NCBI RefSeq assembly: GCF_004006315.1 | Contig: NZ_CP026530.1 | Span: forward strand, 159,618-191,617 | Direction of reading: 5' to 3' | Source: Nautilia sp. PV-1 | Lineage (GTDB): Bacteria; Campylobacterota; Campylobacteria; Campylobacterales; Nautiliaceae | DNA length: 32,000 bases | Shown: positions 1 through 32,000 of the stretch, one piece after another | Position numbering within the stretch: the stretch's first letter is position 1 | How the letters are laid out: every line of letters begins with the position of its first letter | The notes under the pieces: generated by a model | What the model was told of the DNA's origin: nothing | Seen by the model: the letters and a program-made list of their open reading frames with translations, nothing else | Database searches by the model: none | Program-made: the position numbers and the translations under genes

Positions 1-4319
<4,319 letters not shown>

Positions 4320-4364
4320 TTTCTCTCTTTTCCTTCCTAAAAGTCAATAATCTACAAAATTTCT

Positions 4365-4392
4365 TTGAAAATTCATTAAAATTTGATATTAT
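4365..4392 (+). promoter_or_regulatory. Possible sigma70-type promoter for rpsL (TTGAAA-N16-TATTAT with TG at the extended -10 position)
   Basis: TTGAAA at 4365-4370, TGaTATTAT at 4384-4392, about 45 nt upstream of the rpsL ATG. AT-rich background makes chance matches easy. Confidence 0.3.
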
Positions 4393-4434
4393 TTCACACT
4401 AAAAAAGTTAGTAAAATCACAGAAAAGGAAAGCT

Positions 4435-4818
4435 ATGCCTACTATAAACCAATTAGTTAGAAAAGGTAGAAAACAGGTAATTAAAAAATCTAAATCACCT
4501 GCACTTGTAAGCTGTCCTCAAAGAAGAGGGGTTTGTACAAGAGTATATACTACTACTCCTAAAAAACCTAACTCAGCTTTGAGAAAAGTTGCAAAAGTTA
4601 GACTTACTTCAGGTTATGAAGTAATTAGTTACATCCCGGGTGAAGGTCACAACCTACAAGAACACAGCATCGTGCTTGTAAGAGGTGGTAGGGTAAAAGA
4701 CTTACCAGGGGTTAAATATCACATCGTAAGAGGTGCTCTTGATACAGCTGGTGTTAAAGGAAGAGTACACTCAAGAAGTAAATACGGTACAAAAAAAGCT
4801 GACGCAGGTAAGAAGTAA
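4435..4818 (+). CDS. rpsL: 30S ribosomal protein S12
   Basis: 127 aa, [13 protein letters not shown]...[11 protein letters not shown]...VRGG.VKDLPGV.YH.VRG, classic S12. RBS AAAGGAAAG before the ATG. Confidence 0.98.
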
Positions 4819-4826
4819 TATAGTGT

Positions 4827-4846
4827 TTAAGCGAATAAGCGCTTAA
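4827..4846 (+). other. Stem-loop directly after the rpsL stop (TTAAGCG / CGCTTAA, 7-bp stem, 6-nt loop), no U-tract
   Basis: Perfect inverted repeat read from sequence, 9 nt after the rpsL stop codon. Confidence 0.5.
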
Positions 4847-4899
4847 GTTGTGAAGTAAAAGGTACAGATATATAAGTTATAGTTGGTTTTGGTTATAGT

Positions 4900-4987
4900 A
4901 GGAGCAACATTATAAGTGTAAAATGTAAAGTGAAAAGTTATTAATTTTTAATTTTTCACTTTTAACTTTTAACTTGAAATTGCTCCT
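4900..4987 (+). other. Nested inverted repeats in the rpsL-rpsG spacer
   Basis: Outer pair AGGAGCAA (4900-4907) / TTGCTCCT (4980-4987). Inner perfect 10-bp pair AAAGTGAAAA (4927-4936) / TTTTCACTTT (4953-4962) with a 16-nt loop. Confidence 0.6.
4921..4940 (+). repeat. 20-mer AAATGTAAAGTGAAAAGTTA, copy A of a spacer repeat
   Basis: 19/20 identical to 5532-5551. Forms the 5' arm of a hairpin. Confidence 0.8.
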
Positions 4988-5037
4988 CACTGCCAAAAGG
5001 TAGAGTAAGTCCTGTGAAATGCAGGGTAAAAAACTGA

Positions 5038-5520
<483 letters not shown>

Positions 5521-5531
5521 AAACAAATTAA

Positions 5532-5551
5532 AAATGAAAAGTGAAAAGTTA
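5532..5551 (+). repeat. 20-mer AAATGAAAAGTGAAAAGTTA, copy B of the spacer repeat
   Basis: 19/20 identical to 4921-4940. Pairs with CTTTTCTTCTTTTC (5564-5577) as two GAAAAG/CTTTTC helices, so the hairpin spans about 5536-5577. Confidence 0.8.
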
Positions 5552-5618
5552 AAAATGATTTTTCTTTTCTTCTTTTCCCCTTTCAAATTTCACACACAAT
5601 CACAAATAAGGAGATAAT

Positions 5619-7700
5619 ATGCCAAGAAAAACCCCTTTACATATGGTAAGAAACATTGGTATCGCCGCGCATATCGACGCAGGTAAAACAACAACTACAG
5701 AGAGAATCCTTTACTATACAGGTGTTTCTCATAAAATCGGTGAGGTGCACGAAGGTGCAGCTACAATGGACTGGATGGATCAGGAAAAAGAAAGAGGTAT
5801 TACAATTACTTCTGCAGCAACTACATGTTTTTGGAAAGACCACCAAATTAACATTATCGATACTCCGGGACACGTTGACTTTACAATCGAAGTTGAAAGA
5901 AGTATGAGGGTACTTGACGGTGCCGTTGCGGTATTCTGTGCGGTTGGTGGTGTTCAGCCTCAGTCTGAAACAGTTTGGAGACAGGCAAACAAATACAGAG
6001 TTCCAAGAATCGCATTCGTTAACAAAATGGACAGAATCGGTGCGGATTTCTATAACGTTGAAAAACAGATCAGAGAAAGACTAAAAGCTAACGCAGTTCC
6101 AATTCAGATTCCAATCGGTGCGGAAGACAACTTCAAAGGTGTTGTTGATTTAGTTAAAATGAAAGCTCTTGTATGGGATGACGAAGCTGCGCTTGGAAGT
6201 AAATATGAAGAGCAGGAAATTCCTGAAGATTTAAGAGAAAAAGCTGAAGAATACAGAGAAAAAATGATTGAATCAGTTGTTGAAACTGATGAAGCGTTAA
6301 TGGAAAAATATTTTGCCGGTGAAGAGTTAACTGAAGAAGAAATTAAAAATGCTATTAAAAAAGCTACAATTGCTATTGAGATCGTACCAATGCTTTGCGG
6401 TACTGCATTCAAAAATAAAGGTGTTCAGCCGTTACTTGACGCGGTAATCGATTATCTTCCGGCTCCTGATGAAGTTGACTGGATTAAAGGTATTGATCCT
6501 AAAACTGGTGAAGAAATCAGTGTAAATCCAAGTGACGACGAACCGTTTGCAGGTCTTGCGTTCAAAATTATGACTGACCCGTTCGTTGGTAAACTTACAT
6601 TTACAAGATTCTATTCAGGTACAATTACTTCAGGTAGTTACGTACTAAACGCAACTAAAAACAAAAAAGAAAGAGTTGGTAGACTTCTAAGAATGCACTC
6701 AAACAAAAGAGAAGAAGTTAACGAATTCTACAGTGGGGAAATCGGAGCAATCGTTGGTCTTAAAAACACACTTACAGGGGATACTCTTTGTGATGAAAAA
6801 AGACCAATTATTCTTGAGAGAATGGAATTCCCAGATCCGGTTATCAGCGTAGCTGTTGAGCCTAAAACTAAAGCTGACCAGGAAAAAATGGCAATCGCTC
6901 TTCAAAAACTTGCTGAAGAGGATCCAAGTTTCAGAGTGACAACTGACGAAGAATCTGGACAGACTATTATTTCTGGTATGGGTGAGCTTCACCTTGAAAT
7001 TATTGTAGACAGACTTAAGAGAGAATTTAAAGTTGAATGTAACACTGGTAAACCTCAGGTTGCATACAGAGAAACATTCAAAAACCAAGTTGAGCAAGAA
7101 TACAAATACGCAAAACAGTCAGGTGGTAGAGGTCAGTACGGTCACGTATTCATCAGATTAATTCCACAAGAGCCTGGAAAAGGTTATGAGTTTGTTGATT
7201 TAATTAAAGGTGGGGTAATTCCAAGAGAATACATCCCGGCAGTTGATAAAGGTATCCAAGAAGCTGCTCAAGGCGGTGTTTTAGCTGGATTCCCGGTAGT
7301 TGACTTTAAAGTTGAACTTTTCGACGGTTCTTACCATGACGTTGACTCAAGTGAGATGGCGTTTAAACTTGCTGGTTCTATGGCATTTAAAGAAGGTGTT
7401 AAAAAAGCTAACCCTGTTATTCTTGAGCCGATCATGAAAGTTGAAATCGAAGTTCCAGAAGAGTACATGGGTGACGTTATCGGTGACATCAACAGAAGAA
7501 GAGGTCAGGTTAACTCTATGGAAGATGTACACGGAATCAAAAAAATTAACGCATTCGTTCCACTTAGCGAAATGTTCGGTTACTCAACAGACCTTAGAAG
7601 TATGACTCAGGGTAGGGGAACATACTCAATGGTATTCGATCACTATGAAGAAGTACCAAGCAACATTGCTGATGAAATTATCAAAGAAAGACAAGGTTAA
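5619..7700 (+). CDS. fusA: Translation elongation factor G
   Basis: 693 aa. GTPase motifs [21 protein letters not shown]. Conserved position after rpsG. Confidence 0.98.
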
Positions 7701-7795: not shown

Positions 7796-8725
7796 CTAAA
7801 ACCAGTTTTTTCTTTTGAATAATATTACACCTAAGTAAGATAAAAAGAATGACCCGATTATTATAAACGGCAGTGCCCATTGTTTGTTTTCAATAAAAAG
7901 AGGGACATTCATACCGAATAAACTGTAAATAACGGTCGGAATCATTAAAATAATTGAAATTGAAGTTAGCTGTTTCATGACAATGTTTAAGTTATTGGAT
8001 ATTACGGAGGCAAACGCATCCATCATTCCGCTTAAAATATCAGAGTATATCTGTGCCATTGTTAAAGCCTGTTTATTTTCTATAATGGCATCTTCAAGCA
8101 AATCTTCATTTATTTCACTTTTTATGTTTTTTGAATGGTTAAGTTTTGCTAAAATAATTTCATTTGCTTTAATAGAGGTAATAAAATATACAAGACATTT
8201 TTCCATTTTTAATAGATCAATAAGCTCTTTATTTCTAATGGACTGTTCGAGGTCTTTTTGTATTAATGAAATGTATTTATTGATCTGTTTAAGATATCTT
8301 AAATAAATTTTGCCGGTTCTAAGAAATATTTTTAAAATAAAATTTAAATTATCAGGAATCTTTTTATAATATTTTTTTATAAGGTTAAGTTCGTTTATTG
8401 GAAGTATTTCATTTTCTTTTGCGCAGAGAGTTAAAATATATTCTTTGGTTATAAAAATACCTAACGGCACTGTAAAATACGGGATATCATTATTAATATC
8501 ATATATAGGGATTCTAAGAATTATAAGAGTGTAATCATCTTCATATTCGATATGAGAAACTTCATCCGGGTCTAAAATATCATTTATTACGTCTGAGGGA
8601 AGGTTTAGTTCTGTTTTTAAATATTCCAGCTCTTTATCTGTAGGATTTACAACATTAATCCAACAGTTAGTTTCAATTTTTTCTATTTCTTCGATACCGC
8701 CTGTTAATTTAAAATATTTAACCAT
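7796..8725 (-). CDS. corA: CorA-family divalent metal (Mg2+/Co2+) transporter
   Basis: 309 aa. Two C-terminal TM helices flank the signature GMN motif (YSLFGMNVP). Soluble N-terminal domain of typical CorA length. Confidence 0.85.
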   Translation of the reverse strand: MVKYFKLTGGIEEIEKIETNCWINVVNPTDKELEYLKTELNLPSDVINDILDPDEVSHIEYEDDYTLIILRIPIYDINNDIPYFTVPLGIFITKEYILTLCAKENEILPINELNLIKKYYKKIPDNLNFILKIFLRTGKIYLRYLKQINKYISLIQKDLEQSIRNKELIDLLKMEKCLVYFITSIKANEIILAKLNHSKNIKSEINEDLLEDAIIENKQALTMAQIYSDILSGMMDAFASVISNNLNIVMKQLTSISIILMIPTVIYSLFGMNVPLFIENKQWALPFIIIGSFFLSYLGVILFKRKNWF

Positions 8726-8798
8726 AACAAAACCTTCCGGCAGAGATAATAAATAATTATAATACTAATTTGTTTAAATGTCCATAAAAGAGGAAAAA

Positions 8799-9239
8799 TT
8801 AAAGGAAAGATTTAATTTTTTTAAGATCCAGCTGTTTTAAAATATTTACATATTTATTGTAATCATTTCCGTAAAAAAGAAGTTTTAAGGTATATTTGTC
8901 ATTCAACTGAACGGCAATTACCCCTTTTTGTAGTTTTTTATCAATATAAACCGCACTTTTAAAGCCGTTTATTGTTAAATGTTTTAATAAGAAATTTTTT
9001 GTGTCATTGTTTACATTTAATTTTAAAATACCCGGAATTCTGTTTTCAATTCCTATATAAACAATATTGTTGGAACATTCATATTTTTTAATAATTTTAA
9101 AAAAGTCATTTAATGCTATTGGGGCATTTTGCGGTGTATAATAATTGATACTTAAACATTGTGCAAAACTGTCTGGCAGAATATGAGGAGACAGTGCAAA
9201 AGAAAGGCTCGCTATTAACGGTAAAATTATTTTTTTCAT
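8799..9239 (-). CDS. Hypothetical exported protein
   Basis: 146 aa with an N-terminal signal-like segment MKKIILPLIASLSFALS. No recognisable family. Confidence 0.5.
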   Translation of the reverse strand: MKKIILPLIASLSFALSPHILPDSFAQCLSINYYTPQNAPIALNDFFKIIKKYECSNNIVYIGIENRIPGILKLNVNNDTKNFLLKHLTINGFKSAVYIDKKLQKGVIAVQLNDKYTLKLLFYGNDYNKYVNILKQLDLKKIKSFL

Positions 9240-26598: not shown

Positions 26599-27283
26599 AA
26601 ATTTAAAGGTAAAATACGGTGTTATTGAGGCGGTTAGAGGAATTGACTTTAATGTAAAAGCGGGTGAAATTGTCACTATTATCGGAGCTAACGGAGCGGG
26701 TAAAACTTCTACACTTAGTGCTATTTTCAACCTGGTTAAAAAAGAGGGTGAAGTAAGGTTTGTAGAAGGCGATATATCTAAACTTTCAACTGACAAAATA
26801 GTTAAACACGGAATGGCTTTGGTTCCTGAAGGAAGAAAGATTTTTATTAACTTAACCGTTGAAGAAAATCTTAAAATCGGAGCATATACGAATGAAGAAA
26901 ATTACGAAACTCTAAAAGAGGAAATGTTTAGACTTTTTCCAAGACTTAAACAAAAAAGAAACAACTACGGAGGAAGCCTGAGCGGTGGTGAGCAGCAGAT
27001 GCTGGCAATTGCAAGGGCTTTGATGAGTGAACCTAAAATGCTGGTACTTGACGAGCCGTCCCTTGGTCTAGCGCCTATAATCGTAAAAGATTTATTCGGG
27101 ATTTTAGTGGATTTAAACAAAAACGACGACGTTACAATTCTTTTAGTAGAGCAAAACGCTGCGGCTGCTCTTAAAATTGCCGATAGAGCGTATGTTATGG
27201 AAAACGGTTCTCTTGTTATGGAAGATGAGGCAAAAGCCCTTCTTGCAAGTGACGAAATTAAGAAGAAATACCTCGGAGGTTAA
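26585..27283 (+). CDS. livF: LivF-type branched-chain amino acid ABC transporter ATP-binding protein
   Basis: 232 aa. GANGAGKTS, LSGGEQQMLAIARAL, LVLDEPSLGLAP, C-terminal ...KKKYLGG. Confidence 0.85.
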   Translation: MLKVKNLKVKYGVIEAVRGIDFNVKAGEIVTIIGANGAGKTSTLSAIFNLVKKEGEVRFVEGDISKLSTDKIVKHGMALVPEGRKIFINLTVEENLKIGAYTNEENYETLKEEMFRLFPRLKQKRNNYGGSLSGGEQQMLAIARALMSEPKMLVLDEPSLGLAPIIVKDLFGILVDLNKNDDVTILLVEQNAAAALKIADRAYVMENGSLVMEDEAKALLASDEIKKKYLGG

Positions 27284-28161
27284 TTTCTGTTTAAAATCTC
27301 TCCGATTTTTTCTCTCATCCATTTACCCATTTTCATGTTATGATAAGCCCAGCTTAAATACTGCATATCTATTTCGGCTACATCTTCTATTTTCATGCCT
27401 TTATATTTGCCGACTCCGAATTTAAACTCCATAGGTTCATCCAGGTTTTCAAGGTGATGTTCTATTGAATATCTCACATCCGGGTCAAGATCCGTGAGGC
27501 TCAGCATATATTCTATATAATCCGGATCGTTTATAAGAACGTCTTTTATTTTTTCAAATTTATATTTGCCCTGATAGAATTTATCGTGAAGAACCGGCCT
27601 TGTAGTCAAATCGGCAAGCTCTTCAAAGCTTTTATCGAAGTTTTTTACCAGATATTCAAACAAAAGACCTAAAACTATTACATCTCCGAGTGCGTCGTGT
27701 GCGTTAATCTGGATATTGTATTTTTCGCATATCTCTTTTTCTTTTTTATAAAGTCCCAGTGCGTATCTGTTATACTGAAGTGAAAACTTGCCTTCCGGAA
27801 TTAAATGTTTCAGAACCCTAAATGTGTCTACAAGTTTGAAAAACGAGTTAAAACCTTCTTTTTTAAGCATATCAAGGTCAAATTTGGCATTGTGTATTAC
27901 AAGCAGGTTTTCGGGTGAATTAAGCTCTTTTAATCTTTTATATGCATCGGTGTGTTTTATTAAAGGCTTGTCTTCGACCATTTCGTTCGTAATGTGATGA
28001 ACGGCCATTGCCTCAAAGCTGATTGGAAGAGGAGGCTTTACAAGCTCGTCGTGTATTTCTTCGATTTCAAGGTTTTCGTTTAAAACCAGATAGCTTAACT
28101 GTATTATTCTGTCTTCTTCTTTGTTTCCTGTTGTTTCGGTGTCAAGTATTATTATTTTCAT
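27280..28161 (-). CDS. DEDDh 3'-5' exonuclease (DnaQ/ExoX-like) with C-terminal DUF3820-like repeats
   Basis: 293 aa. Exo I LDTETTG, Exo II HNAKFDLDML, Exo III HDALGDV. The C-terminal FGVGKYKGMKIEDVAEIDMQYLSWAY resembles DUF3820. Confidence 0.8.
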   Translation of the reverse strand: MKIIILDTETTGNKEEDRIIQLSYLVLNENLEIEEIHDELVKPPLPISFEAMAVHHITNEMVEDKPLIKHTDAYKRLKELNSPENLLVIHNAKFDLDMLKKEGFNSFFKLVDTFRVLKHLIPEGKFSLQYNRYALGLYKKEKEICEKYNIQINAHDALGDVIVLGLLFEYLVKNFDKSFEELADLTTRPVLHDKFYQGKYKFEKIKDVLINDPDYIEYMLSLTDLDPDVRYSIEHHLENLDEPMEFKFGVGKYKGMKIEDVAEIDMQYLSWAYHNMKMGKWMREKIGEILNRN

Positions 28162-28804
28162 CTATTTCCTTAATAAGTGGTATTTTTATTATGTATCCGT
28201 CGTCTTTGTTTAAAATCTCGAAATAAGGAGATTTTATTGTTTTATGTGGTTTGGTTTTTATGCCGATTTCTATAATCTGATATTTTTTATCGTTGATTTT
28301 AATATATTCGCCGACGTTTATTTTTGTTGAAATTATAGCTTCTTTTTGGTTTTCAAGCATATCGAAAATTATATCTAAAAGAGCCTTTTTATGTACAAGA
28401 ATCGTAGGTATCGAAGGGTCGAACATGGTTGTAATGGTTATGTTTTGTTTAAGAGTGGAATATTCTATTGCAAAATTTAAAAGCATGGAAAGGTCTATTT
28501 CTTCTAATTCTGTTAATTCTATTGAATGGGTGTTTGTGTTTATAAAAAATCTTATTCCGACGTTGGTATCGTCTTTATAGCCTATACTGTAGCCGTTAAA
28601 TTCGAAATCTTTGAATTTAACGTGTTTAAACTCCGTTTTTATTCCTGGATTAGCGGGAGCGTTGTTTATCACAAATTCGTAAACTTCTTTTTTATTGACG
28701 TACGACAGAAAAATTTCCGCTTCCTGGTTGCAGTATTGTATATGTCCTTTTTCGTTGAATATAATAAGCGGATTTATATCGTATTCACACCAGAATTCAA
28801 ACAT
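28142..28804 (-). CDS. Hypothetical protein: PAS-like N-terminus plus degenerate HATPase-like C-terminus, no H-box
   Basis: 220 aa. NPLIIFNEKGHIQYCNQEAEIFL matches the PAS core pattern. The C-terminal half (IDLSMLLNF...VHKKALLDIIFDMLENQKEA...IEIGIKT) has kinase catalytic-domain-like spacing but lacks G1/G2 boxes. Overlaps neighbours by 8 and 20 bp. Confidence 0.45.
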   Translation of the reverse strand: MFEFWCEYDINPLIIFNEKGHIQYCNQEAEIFLSYVNKKEVYEFVINNAPANPGIKTEFKHVKFKDFEFNGYSIGYKDDTNVGIRFFINTNTHSIELTELEEIDLSMLLNFAIEYSTLKQNITITTMFDPSIPTILVHKKALLDIIFDMLENQKEAIISTKINVGEYIKINDKKYQIIEIGIKTKPHKTIKSPYFEILNKDDGYIIKIPLIKEIDENNNT

Positions 28805-29477
28805 TTAAAGCCTTCATTTTTTTTGTTAAGGTAACTCGGTTTATTTTAAGATGGTTTGCTATTTGAAGTTTGCTTTTATATTTGGTCTTTGCCGCTTTAA
28901 AAAGGGCTTTTTCAAAATTGTTCAGTTCTTCTTCATAAGTGAAGTCTTCATTTATGTTTTCAAAATAATCAGTTAAAATTTTATAAACATCCTGTTTGTT
29001 TTCAGGCAGAAGGAATTTTGAAAAGATCTGTCTTTTTAAAGAATTCAGGTTTTCGCTTATATCCGGATGTTCAATGTGAATGTTTTTGCTGATTTTTAAC
29101 TCTTCTTTTGCCTGCTGTTTAAATAAGTCTATAAAATCGTAAATATCTTCCGGGTGTTCTTTTAGAGGTTTTAATTCTATGTCCATAGTGAAATATTTTT
29201 TTAAAATTTCTTTGTTTAAAGGCTGTGTTCCGGTGGCTATTAAAAAGTTGTTTTTAAATTCAAGTACCGGATTTTTATCGAAATCTTCCAAGATAACTGG
29301 GTTTATTGTGGGGGTTTTGGGATTTATTACGGCATTAGGCGCTATATATTTGGCGAGAAAGGTTTTGCCGACTCCCTTTTCACCCCATATATAGACGTTT
29401 ATTTTGAGCTGTTTACACATATCGGCGATGTTTTTTATTTTTTTTAAATATTCCGAAGTTGCTAAAAACATAAGCAC
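28797..29477 (-). CDS. AAA+ (sigma54-activator-derived, GAFTGA-less) protein with C-terminal Fis-type HTH
   Basis: 226 aa (GTG 29477, or ATG 29471). Walker A GEKGVGKT. VILEDFD (Walker B-like). LKPLKEHPEDIYDFIDLF resembles the EBP motif lPPLReR.eDI..L..hF. C-terminal LQIANHLKINRVTLTKKMK is an HTH. No receiver domain and no GAFTGA. Confidence 0.55.
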   Translation of the reverse strand: MLMFLATSEYLKKIKNIADMCKQLKINVYIWGEKGVGKTFLAKYIAPNAVINPKTPTINPVILEDFDKNPVLEFKNNFLIATGTQPLNKEILKKYFTMDIELKPLKEHPEDIYDFIDLFKQQAKEELKISKNIHIEHPDISENLNSLKRQIFSKFLLPENKQDVYKILTDYFENINEDFTYEEELNNFEKALFKAAKTKYKSKLQIANHLKINRVTLTKKMKALNV

Positions 29478-29496
29478 CTTTTTGCTTATGATTATA

Positions 29497-30333
29497 TCAA
29501 ATATTTTTGTTTGTTTTTATGAAAAAAGTAAGTGTGGCAATCATTAAAGATATGCCGGCAAACAGCCAAAAAGCATTCGACATTAATGATATGTTTTTTA
29601 ACGATATTTTAAATACCAGCATTAACGCTTCTATTGAAAGCGCTATAAGAATTGAAATAATAAATTTTACAAACGTTTTCTTTTCTATATTTTCGTCTTT
29701 TTTAAAGCTTTTAAAAAACACCTCCTGTTCGAGCAGCGTTTTTGAAAGGTCGAATATTGCAATTGCAATTGTGATGTAAATTATCGGTTTGAAAAAAGAC
29801 ATAATTGAAAGTTCTCCGTATTTGAATATTTCGTATACCGAATATGCCAGTATTGAAAATGATAAAAACATCATAAAAAATCCGCTCAGGGCGTAAAACA
29901 GCTTGGTTGTGGAATCAAATACGGTATGGGTTTCCAGAAGTTTTAGCCTTTCAAGCAGCGTTTTTAAATTAAAATCCAAAAAAAGCGTTTTTTCATTTTG
30001 AGGAATCGCTAAAGTAATGCATATATTTCCTGTGGCGGAGCTTTTATAAGGCGTACTCATTAAAGAGTTTTTGAAATCTATTTTTTTAAACAGATATTGT
30101 CTTGATTTTCCTTTTTCGTTTCCGTCTTCTTTGTTTCTGTAATAATTAGGAGAAATTTGTGTTTTTGACTCATTGTCTACCACATATATCAGTTCTAAAG
30201 ATTTAAAATATTCAAATAGATGTTTCAAATTATGTTCTGAAAGAAGATTTGATGTGGTATTTAAAATGGTGTCTTTTAAAAATGATTCTATAAAAAATCT
30301 GTTTTGTTCGTATATTTCAAGCAGTTCATTCAC
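29497..30333 (-). CDS. Membrane protein: N-terminal soluble Cache/PDC-like domain plus four C-terminal TM helices
   Basis: 278 aa with no signal peptide. YVVDNESKTQISPNYY...STPYKSSATGNICITLAIP fits the Cache/PDC pattern. Four hydrophobic helices between about residues 146 and 272. Confidence 0.5.
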   Translation of the reverse strand: MNELLEIYEQNRFFIESFLKDTILNTTSNLLSEHNLKHLFEYFKSLELIYVVDNESKTQISPNYYRNKEDGNEKGKSRQYLFKKIDFKNSLMSTPYKSSATGNICITLAIPQNEKTLFLDFNLKTLLERLKLLETHTVFDSTTKLFYALSGFFMMFLSFSILAYSVYEIFKYGELSIMSFFKPIIYITIAIAIFDLSKTLLEQEVFFKSFKKDENIEKKTFVKFIISILIALSIEALMLVFKISLKNISLMSNAFWLFAGISLMIATLTFFIKTNKNI

Positions 30334-30380
30334 TGTAAGCCTTTTTTTGGTGATTTATAAAGCTGAATGTGAAATATTGA

Positions 30381-30416
30381 ATTTAAAAAGGAAGTAAAAG
30401 AAAGAACTCTTTTACT
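30381..30416 (-). terminator. Rho-independent terminator after amtB
   Basis: On the minus strand: AGTAAAAG / CTTTTACT 8-bp stem (30409-30416 / 30393-30400), 8-nt loop, followed by TCCTTTTTAAAT. Confidence 0.6.
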
Positions 30417-30419
30417 TGA

Positions 30420-32000
<1,581 letters not shown>

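Follow-up and report, generated by a model that had tools for sequence, protein, structure and literature searches.

A candidate phosphorylation-independent regulator derived from NtrB-NtrC beside the ammonium transporter genes of Nautilia and other Campylobacterota

Among the described systems, those closest to the locus analysed here are NtrB-NtrC (GlnL-GlnG), in which the enteric NtrC site is TGCACC-N5-GGTGCA, and NifL-NifA of Azotobacter and Klebsiella, in which the PAS/kinase-like NifL controls the enhancer-binding protein (EBP) NifA by binding, under PII control. A further comparison is offered by the NtrC of Rhodobacter capsulatus and by TyrR, which regulate sigma-70 promoters by way of dyad sites upstream. 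Chemolithoautotrophic Campylobacterota dominate hydrothermal vents and sulfidic habitats, and, to our knowledge, nitrogen regulation in these bacteria is essentially uncharacterised. We analysed a 32-kb stretch of the genome of Nautilia sp. PV-1 (hereafter, the window) and, within it, four minus-strand open reading frames (ORFs), denoted P1 to P4, that lie beside glnK and amtB. Two of these genes, P2 and P3, are interpreted here, with moderate confidence, as a phosphorylation-independent nitrogen regulator that is derived from NtrB/NtrC and would act at sigma-70-type promoters in the manner of NifL-NifA. The features of the locus, in window coordinates, are as follows.

P1, 29497..30333, minus strand: 278 aa, membrane protein; PDC/YkuI_C-like domain at the N-terminus (aa 1-130), then four transmembrane helices (aa 137-276)
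P2, 28797..29471, minus strand: 224 aa, truncated EBP, predicted NtrC-like DNA-binding protein
P3, 28142..28804, minus strand: 220 aa, PAS domain (aa ~7-90) and kinase catalytic (CA/HATPase-like) fold (aa ~101-211)
P4, 27280..28161, minus strand: 293 aa, ExoX-like DEDDh 3'-5' exonuclease with two ExoX-like_C repeats
amtB, 30420..31700, minus strand: ammonium transporter ORF of 426 aa, with a Pfam Ammonium_transp match on orthologues
glnK (P-II protein), 31690..32000, minus strand: cut by the end of the window; phmmer match to GlnK at 3e-43
Walker A motif of P2, GEKGVGKT, 29361..29384, minus strand: aa 30-37
C-terminal Fis/NtrC-type helix-turn-helix (HTH) of P2, SKLQIANHLKINRVTLTKKMK, 28812..28874, minus strand: HTH_8 at 17.9 bits, TIGR01818 at 6.5e-6
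Predicted extended -10-like element for P2-P3-P4, TGATATAAT, 29491..29499, minus strand: overlaps the stop codon of P1
Terminator-like hairpin with U-tract in the spacer between amtB and P1, 30380..30417, minus strand: from RNA folding

P2 clearly descends from an EBP. In Pfam, it matches the sigma-54 activator families (PF00158/PF14532) Sigma54_activ_2 (1.7e-6, 28.8 bits, cut-off 25) and Sigma54_activat (3.5e-4, 20.8 bits, cut-off 20.2), and the match of its C-terminal region to HTH_8 is weak and under the cut-off of 22 bits. The NCBIfam matches are to NtrC, at its C-terminus, and to FlgR, PgtA and NorR, around Walker A; the alignment with TIGR01818 (ntrC) covers model positions 399-462, that is, the C-terminus only, and reaches 25.2 bits, where the cut-off is 558.6. 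When a profile of 68 members of the P2 family was compared with full-length EBPs using hhalign, the two were aligned with a probability of 99.85% and an E-value of 6.5e-31, from just past the receiver domain to the C-terminus. P2 has no receiver domain of its own and starts where that of EBPs has ended. Within the aligned region, two blocks are deleted in the P2 family, namely, the ESELFGxxKGAFTGA segment and the pre-sensor-I insertion, so that a gap is found in place of the GAFTGA (L1) loop. Compared with NtrC1 of Aquifex, P2 lacks about 70 residues of the AAA+ core, with NtrC1 residues 24-59 and 171-209 corresponding to residues 11-43 and 85-123 of P2. The preliminary description of this DNA had presented P2 as an EBP-derived AAA+ protein that kept Walker A and a Fis-type HTH and lost the receiver and GAFTGA, an assignment on which the Pfam and hhalign results agree. 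Because the GAFTGA motif is absent, activation of sigma-54 by P2 is impossible.

The nucleotide-binding motifs of P2 are unevenly conserved. Walker A has four invariant residues (G30, G33, G35 and K36), and Nautiliaceae retain T/S37; in the Sulfurovum and Arcobacter homologues, the last residue of the motif is K or R. At the Walker B position, E-D/N is found in Nautiliaceae and N-F in the wider family. Because the T/S of Walker A is replaced by K/R and the acidic Walker B pair is gone in most of the family outside Nautiliaceae, the AAA+ domain of P2 looks like a scaffold and not a motor, as far as can be judged from the alignments. The HTH carries residues that are near-invariant across the family (N211, R212, T214, L215, K217 and K218, which form an NRxTLxKK motif). 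An exhaustive profile search retrieved 86 representatives of the family at E<1e-10, all of 220-270 aa, with full-length EBPs ranking below them and matching in two separate stretches. The HTH pattern of the family, G[LI]NRNTLRK, also retrieved dozens of full-length alphaproteobacterial loci, which can be aligned with the P2 family along as much as its entire length.

The product of P3 had been described as a PAS protein with a kinase-like C-terminus devoid of an H-box and G-boxes, and here structure prediction, fold comparison and alignments concur. In the AlphaFold2 model (pLDDT 87.8), the PAS domain (13-88) is joined straight to a CA fold (101-209), with no helical hairpin between them. Foldseek retrieves the PAS-histidine kinases WalK, YF1 and ThkA at 6e-7 to 1e-5 and matches many CA domains with probability 1.00, including that of NtrB (1r62; E-value 4.6e-5, TM-score 0.57 on the target); the alignments to full kinases jump over DHp. 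Neither the model nor these alignments contain a DHp/H-box with a phospho-accepting histidine, and the family alignments show neither DxGxG nor GxGxG and lack a conserved asparagine at the N-box, so that the N, G1 and G2 boxes are all missing. Pfam yields no match to P3, with no HATPase_c at E <= 1. Because P2 and P3 have no histidine box, ATP boxes or receiver domain, phosphotransfer by this pair is impossible.

The gene contexts of the two families were collected from neighbourhood look-ups, from a genome scan combined with a phmmer map, and from a metagenome scan with Sulfurovum-type P3 that yielded 80 loci. In Nautiliaceae, the order glnK-amtB-P1-P2-P3-P4 is found in Lebetimonas and in the Nautilia contig L088, in which P2 is 100% identical to that of the window; Caminibacter pacificus (L001) and a Nautiliaceae metagenome-assembled genome (MAG; L089) have glnK-amtB-P2-P3-P4 without P1, and in the MAG the distance from amtB to P2 is 35 nt. 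The genomes of Sulfurovum and Nitratifractor show the order P2-P3-amtB-glnK. In the 80 metagenome loci, P2 directly precedes P3 in 78 and amtB lies downstream in 75, counts that attest to the stability of the arrangement and not to independent events, given that these loci are closely related (73-94% identity); P1 and P4 are found in none of the 80. A third arrangement is present in Arcobacter sp. LA11 and Ca. Marinarcus, where P1-P2-glnD lie on one strand and two amtB-glnK pairs are divergent on the other. Thus, the conserved core of the locus is the translationally coupled P2-P3 pair, which adjoins amtB-glnK in two distant lineages, Nautiliaceae and Sulfurovaceae/Nitratifractor, and P2 is the only transcription factor or other DNA-binding protein conserved in these loci. 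The linkage to glnK-amtB, to be checked across Campylobacterota according to the preliminary description, is therefore borne out for this pair, and the proposal made there of a degenerate, phosphorylation-independent NtrB/NtrC-like nitrogen module gains support from the same adjacency.

The layout of the locus in Nautilia sp. PV-1 is compatible with coupled expression of the pair. All four ORFs are present where they had been placed initially, with P2 then given as 28797-29477, and the close packing on the minus strand with overlaps of 8 and 20 bp can be read directly in the sequence: P2 and P3 overlap by 8 bp (ATGTTTGA) and P3 and P4 by 20 bp. The same overlaps recur in Caminibacter, Lebetimonas and two further Nautiliaceae contigs. 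The start codon of P2 is the ATG at 29471, as indicated by a database protein of 224 aa with 100% identity and by the ribosome-binding site AAAAAGGTG; because of this start, the gap between P1 and P2 is 25 nt, and the earlier figure of 19 nt has to be corrected. The NCBI database contains entries that match two of the products with 100% identity, namely, 'Fis family transcriptional regulator [Nautilia sp. PV-1]' for P2 and 'hypothetical protein C3L23_01080' for P1. Upstream of P2, the arrangement TGnTATAAT-N8/9-AAAAAGGTG-N3-ATG is invariant in five Nautiliaceae loci, with or without P1, and P2-P3-P4 appears to have its own promoter, as predicted from this element. Because of this TGnTATAAT element, P1 is not simply the first cistron of a single operon.

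On the other side, the 86-nt spacer between amtB and P1 contains a hairpin with an 11-bp stem (30392-30417) followed by a U-tract. RNA folding gives -9.8 kcal/mol (z = -5.0), none of 200 shuffles folds as well, and the terminator that had been proposed after amtB is supported to this extent. A consensus terminator scan did not pick up the hairpin because its stem is AT-rich. No Rfam family was found at gathering score anywhere in the window, and no meaningful repeats were found in 27000-32000. The locus belongs to the syntenic core genome and is of ordinary composition.

Comparison of the intergenic regions revealed a 17-bp palindrome, TGATTAA-N3-TTAATCA, as a candidate operator. Seven perfect copies are present in 345 kb of non-redundant Campylobacterota loci, compared with none in 20 shuffles that preserve local composition. 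All seven are located in promoter regions, namely, those of glnK in Lebetimonas and Nautilia, of P2 and amtB in Sulfurovum, and of a nirA-like gene that is followed by a P1 homologue; the last copy (L091:2958-2974) lies between a divergent MFS transporter gene and the nirA-like gene. With at most one mismatch, 171 copies are found in the 80 Sulfurovum-type loci, of which 161 are within 250 bp upstream of amtB (109), P2 (50) or glnK (2). The half-sites are fixed and the 3-nt spacer is variable, as expected of a protein-binding site. P2 is the natural candidate binder because no other DNA-binding protein is conserved in these loci, and we infer that it binds the palindrome.

The positions of the copies suggest a direction of regulation. 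In the Nautilia contig L088, two copies (4339-4355 and 4361-4377) are 22 bp apart upstream of glnK, which starts at 4444; in window numbering, they would be at about 32095-32133, that is, ~95-135 nt past the end of the window. The two dyads in the glnK promoter of Nautilia sp. PV-1 are TGATTAATTTTTATACA and TGATTAATTTTTAATCA. In L088, a TATAAT element follows them at distances of ~33 and 55 nt, which places their centres near -53 and -75, putative activator positions. The Sulfurovum copy at P2 closely follows a TGATATAAT element, a putative repressor position. The glnK promoters have TATAAT-type -10 elements and contain no sigma-54 (GG-N10-GC) box.

Two other dyads were observed in the same regions. 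Arcobacter sp. LA11 carries a variant 17-bp dyad, TGTATA-N5-TATACA, in three copies (L005:3087-3103, 4791-4807 and 4939-4955) around its two amtB-glnK units and the divergent P1-P2-glnD operon; this dyad may be a lineage-specific version of the operator. In all four Nautiliaceae (L088, L001, L003 and L089), a shorter conserved dyad, TTGATTTTATCAA (TGAT-N3-ATCA; L088:4286-4300), is found upstream of glnK and adjoins the start of a divergent ferredoxin-thioredoxin-reductase-like/rhodanese gene (alignment columns ~18-32). That gene is part of a row divergent from glnK and conserved in the same genomes (L088:728-4268; L001, L003, L089), which consists of FeThRed_B, FeThRed_B+rhodanese, small ORFs and a DUF7897 protein, and may share a nitrogen-regulated intergenic region with glnK.

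A mechanism can be outlined on this basis. P2 would sit as a dimer on the 17-bp palindrome, activating the sigma-70-type promoters of glnK-amtB, amtB and the nirA-like gene from sites near -50 and -75, and repressing its own promoter in Sulfurovum from the site just downstream of the -10 element. P3, kept in a fixed ratio with P2 by translational coupling, would modulate P2 through direct binding, as NifL does NifA. The input to P3 could be a ligand of its PAS domain, docking of GlnK on the kinase-like domain in the way PII docks on the catalytic domain of NtrB, or both. P1, a membrane protein that is distributed separately and associated with nitrogen genes, possibly supplies a further input, and P4 would be an ExoX-type repair exonuclease that joined the operon in Nautiliaceae only. 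The complete chain, with a relay from GlnK through P3, is put forward tentatively. Equally tentative is the broad form of the model, in which, in Campylobacterota outside Campylobacter and Helicobacter, the NtrC remnant occupies the palindrome at the sigma-70 promoters of glnK, amtB and nirA, is switched by binding of the NtrB remnant and receives both a GlnK/2-oxoglutarate relay and input from P1.

The likeness to NtrB-NtrC is apparent at several levels: P2 aligns with the central and HTH domains of EBPs, P3 contains PAS and CA domains, the types found in NtrB (NF008293), the P2 and P3 genes are adjacent to each other and beside glnK-amtB, and the candidate operator, a dyad of 17 bp, begins with TG and ends with CA, as does the enteric NtrC site. 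Unlike NtrB-NtrC, the P2-P3 pair lacks the receiver, the DHp/H-box, the ATP boxes and GAFTGA; the gene order is C-like and then B-like; and the scores fall far below the respective model cut-offs (P2, 25 bits against 558.6 for ntrC; P3, 16.6 bits against 240 for NR(II)). With NifL-NifA, the pair shares a PAS and non-phosphorylating kinase-like protein encoded beside an EBP-family protein in a PII-linked nitrogen context, and, by analogy, a presumed stoichiometric mode of action. In contrast, NifA has GAF and GAFTGA and is a complete activator of sigma-54, and NifL keeps the H-domain and a nucleotide-binding GHKL domain, whereas P2 and P3 are far more reduced and interact only presumably. R. 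capsulatus NtrC and TyrR resemble P2 in being EBP-derived without the sigma-54 contact loop, but they keep a receiver (or ACT/PAS), an active partner kinase and an AAA+ core that is complete, all of which P2 lacks. On the present reading, P2-P3 would be a variant derived from NtrBC and similar to NifLA, not a categorically new system.

If this interpretation holds, the locus would be a natural case of a two-component phosphorelay that decayed into a pure protein-protein partner-switch and kept its physiological job. It would also provide a function for a 'Fis family regulator', for a family of 'hypothetical proteins' and for a membrane protein family of about 1000 members; in Pfam and NCBIfam, no family covers P1 or P3, and the sole annotation of P2 is 'Fis family transcriptional regulator'. 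The sharply defined candidate operator yields a testable regulon model for glnK, amtB and nirA.

Several observations weigh against an NtrB/NtrC-derived nitrogen regulator. The kinase relationship of P3 is visible only by fold comparison: the search of PDB with the P3 family sequences gave no significant match to any solved kinase, and the NtrB ancestry of P3 is suggested by the modelled fold, by a weak match in NCBIfam (0.0035) and by the Joint Genome Institute label of family members, 'nitrogen-specific signal transduction histidine kinase'. No copy of the palindrome with two or fewer mismatches is present in the window, including upstream of P1 and P2, and the candidate operator could belong to another regulator. 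Two loci of the Sulfurovaceae type, both from MAGs, contain P2-P3 without amtB, and the close relatedness of the Sulfurovum-type metagenome loci limits the weight of their number. In the literature, including the genome and proteome papers on Nautilia sp. PV-1 and N. profundicola, we found no published description, experiment or transcript study of these genes. Finally, a lone P2 homologue resides between slyD and fabD in Sulfurimonas, Sulfurospirillum and Hydrogenimonas, in the row slyD-(P2)-fabD-pfs-tilS-like (L010:7496-11564, L013:6323-11189 and L019), with no P1, P3 or nitrogen genes nearby.

This housekeeping context supports an alternative under which P2 is a Fis-like factor or nucleoid protein unrelated to nitrogen and P3 an unrelated PAS protein, both next to the nitrogen genes through inherited synteny, with the palindrome serving another nitrogen regulator. 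The NCBI annotation of P2 as a Fis family protein and the lack of an operator copy at P1 or P2 in the window point the same way. Inherited synteny alone, however, hardly explains why P2 is linked to amtB/glnK or glnD in each of three gene orders (Nautiliaceae, Sulfurovaceae/Nitratifractor and Arcobacteraceae). Moreover, in Sulfurovum the palindrome is directly upstream of P2 (50 of the 171 copies), a placement typical of autoregulation, and no transcription factor other than P2 is conserved in these loci. We consider this alternative unlikely.

A single module of all four genes, composed of a membrane sensor, an AAA+/HTH protein, a pseudo-kinase and a nuclease output and devoted to nitrogen-controlled nucleic-acid processing or to a defence-like function, is less probable still. 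The preliminary description favoured such a module, and contiguity does hold in Nautilia and Lebetimonas, with the same overlaps; the 20-bp overlap of P3 and P4 is kept in every Nautiliaceae locus examined, so P4 would be co-expressed with P2-P3 in that family. Outside Nautiliaceae, however, P4 is not beside P2-P3 in any of 85 Sulfurovum-type loci or in either of the two Arcobacteraceae loci, P1 is dispensable even within the family, as its absence from C. pacificus and MAG L089 demonstrates, and P2-P3-P4 has a promoter-like element of its own. What remains of the co-occurrence expected of the four genes is the P2-P3 pair, with the complete set confined to Nautiliaceae and P1 not present in all of these, and the four-gene module is thus only partly real. 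As for a nucleic-acid-targeting, defence-like system, which had been offered as an alternative reading, it is rejected: PADLOC matches are generic (P2 to RtcR/PspF AAA-HTH models only, P4 to a DEDDh model only, none for P1 and P3), synteny is conserved, the composition is ordinary, and P4 is ExoX-like with an intact DEDDh set.

It is very improbable, finally, that P2 is still an ATP-dependent, sigma-54-linked protein, for instance, one that titrates or remodels sigma-54 or another EBP such as FlgR: the family is clearly EBP-derived, and Nautiliaceae keep the Walker A motif GEKGVGKT and an acidic pair (ED) at Walker B, but P2 has lost the GAFTGA segment and the pre-sensor-I insertion, the Walker A T/S and the acidic Walker B pair are lost in most of the wider family, and the glnK promoters combine a TATAAT -10 element with the lack of a GG-N10-GC box.

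P1 represents an independently distributed family that recurs beside nitrogen genes (amtB/glnK, glnD, nirA-like). A search yielded 975 matches at ~50% identity across Campylobacterota, including Arcobacter, Poseidonibacter, Sulfurimonas and others, and P1 also occurs without P2 elsewhere. In contig L091, a P1 homologue follows the nirA-like (NIR_SIR) gene, of the sulfite/nitrite reductase type, after 24 nt (3028-5843), an arrangement that links P1 to nitrite/nitrate assimilation; in two other contigs, a P1 homologue adjoins a BFD-like [2Fe-2S] gene. One homologue, from Ca. Marinarcus aquaticus, is named 'General glycosylation pathway protein' in UniRef, a label that may point to PglG of C. jejuni. 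In C. pacificus, where P1 is absent, the spacer between amtB and P2 (L001:5585-6000) consists of 416 bp of non-coding sequence that includes a hairpin and repeats resembling CACGATTTCACAAAC. Loss of P1 may have left this spacer behind as a scar, or it may be an element in its own right.

The AlphaFold2 model of P1 (pLDDT 75.9) shows an N-terminal PDC-like domain followed by four transmembrane helices. In Foldseek, the best PDB matches of the domain are to the cytoplasmic C-terminal domain of YkuI (2bas; 1.1e-5, 18-23% identity) and to the dCache domain of Tlp3 (2e-3), and the modelled domain superposes on both; the sequence match to dCache_1 (PF02743) is 17.5 bits, under the cut-off of 45. Unlike the described YkuI_C and Cache (PDC) domains, that of P1 is fused to a four-helix transmembrane bundle without a Pfam match at E <= 1, and the PsiE-like nature previously suggested for this bundle was not recovered. 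Because neither a signal peptide nor a transmembrane helix precedes the N-terminal PDC-like domain, this domain is presumably cytoplasmic, in keeping with the sensor plus four-helix architecture envisaged initially.

P4 is a lineage-specific operon passenger, attached only in Nautiliaceae. The earlier assignment to ExoX-like DEDDh exonucleases stands: Pfam gives RNase_T at 1.1e-20 and ExoX-like_C at 2.2e-16 in two stretches, and the sequence shows the DxE, D and H-x4-D motifs, that is, DEDDh is intact. The best sequence match in PDB is E. coli ExoX (4fzx, 7e-8), with which P4 shares the DEDDh RNase_T domain and the ExoX-like_C motif; P4 differs in its length of 293 aa with two C-terminal repeats and in scoring 127.4 bits, under the equivalog cut-off of 202, with its best NCBIfam match, ExoX NF005937. 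Judging by these motifs, P4 looks like an ordinary ExoX-type repair enzyme.

Far from the locus, the GC content of the window falls to 0.257 at 8001-9000, compared with 0.30-0.39 in the flanks, and the AT skew is reversed; this dip spans two minus-strand ORFs, 7796-8725 and 8799-9239.

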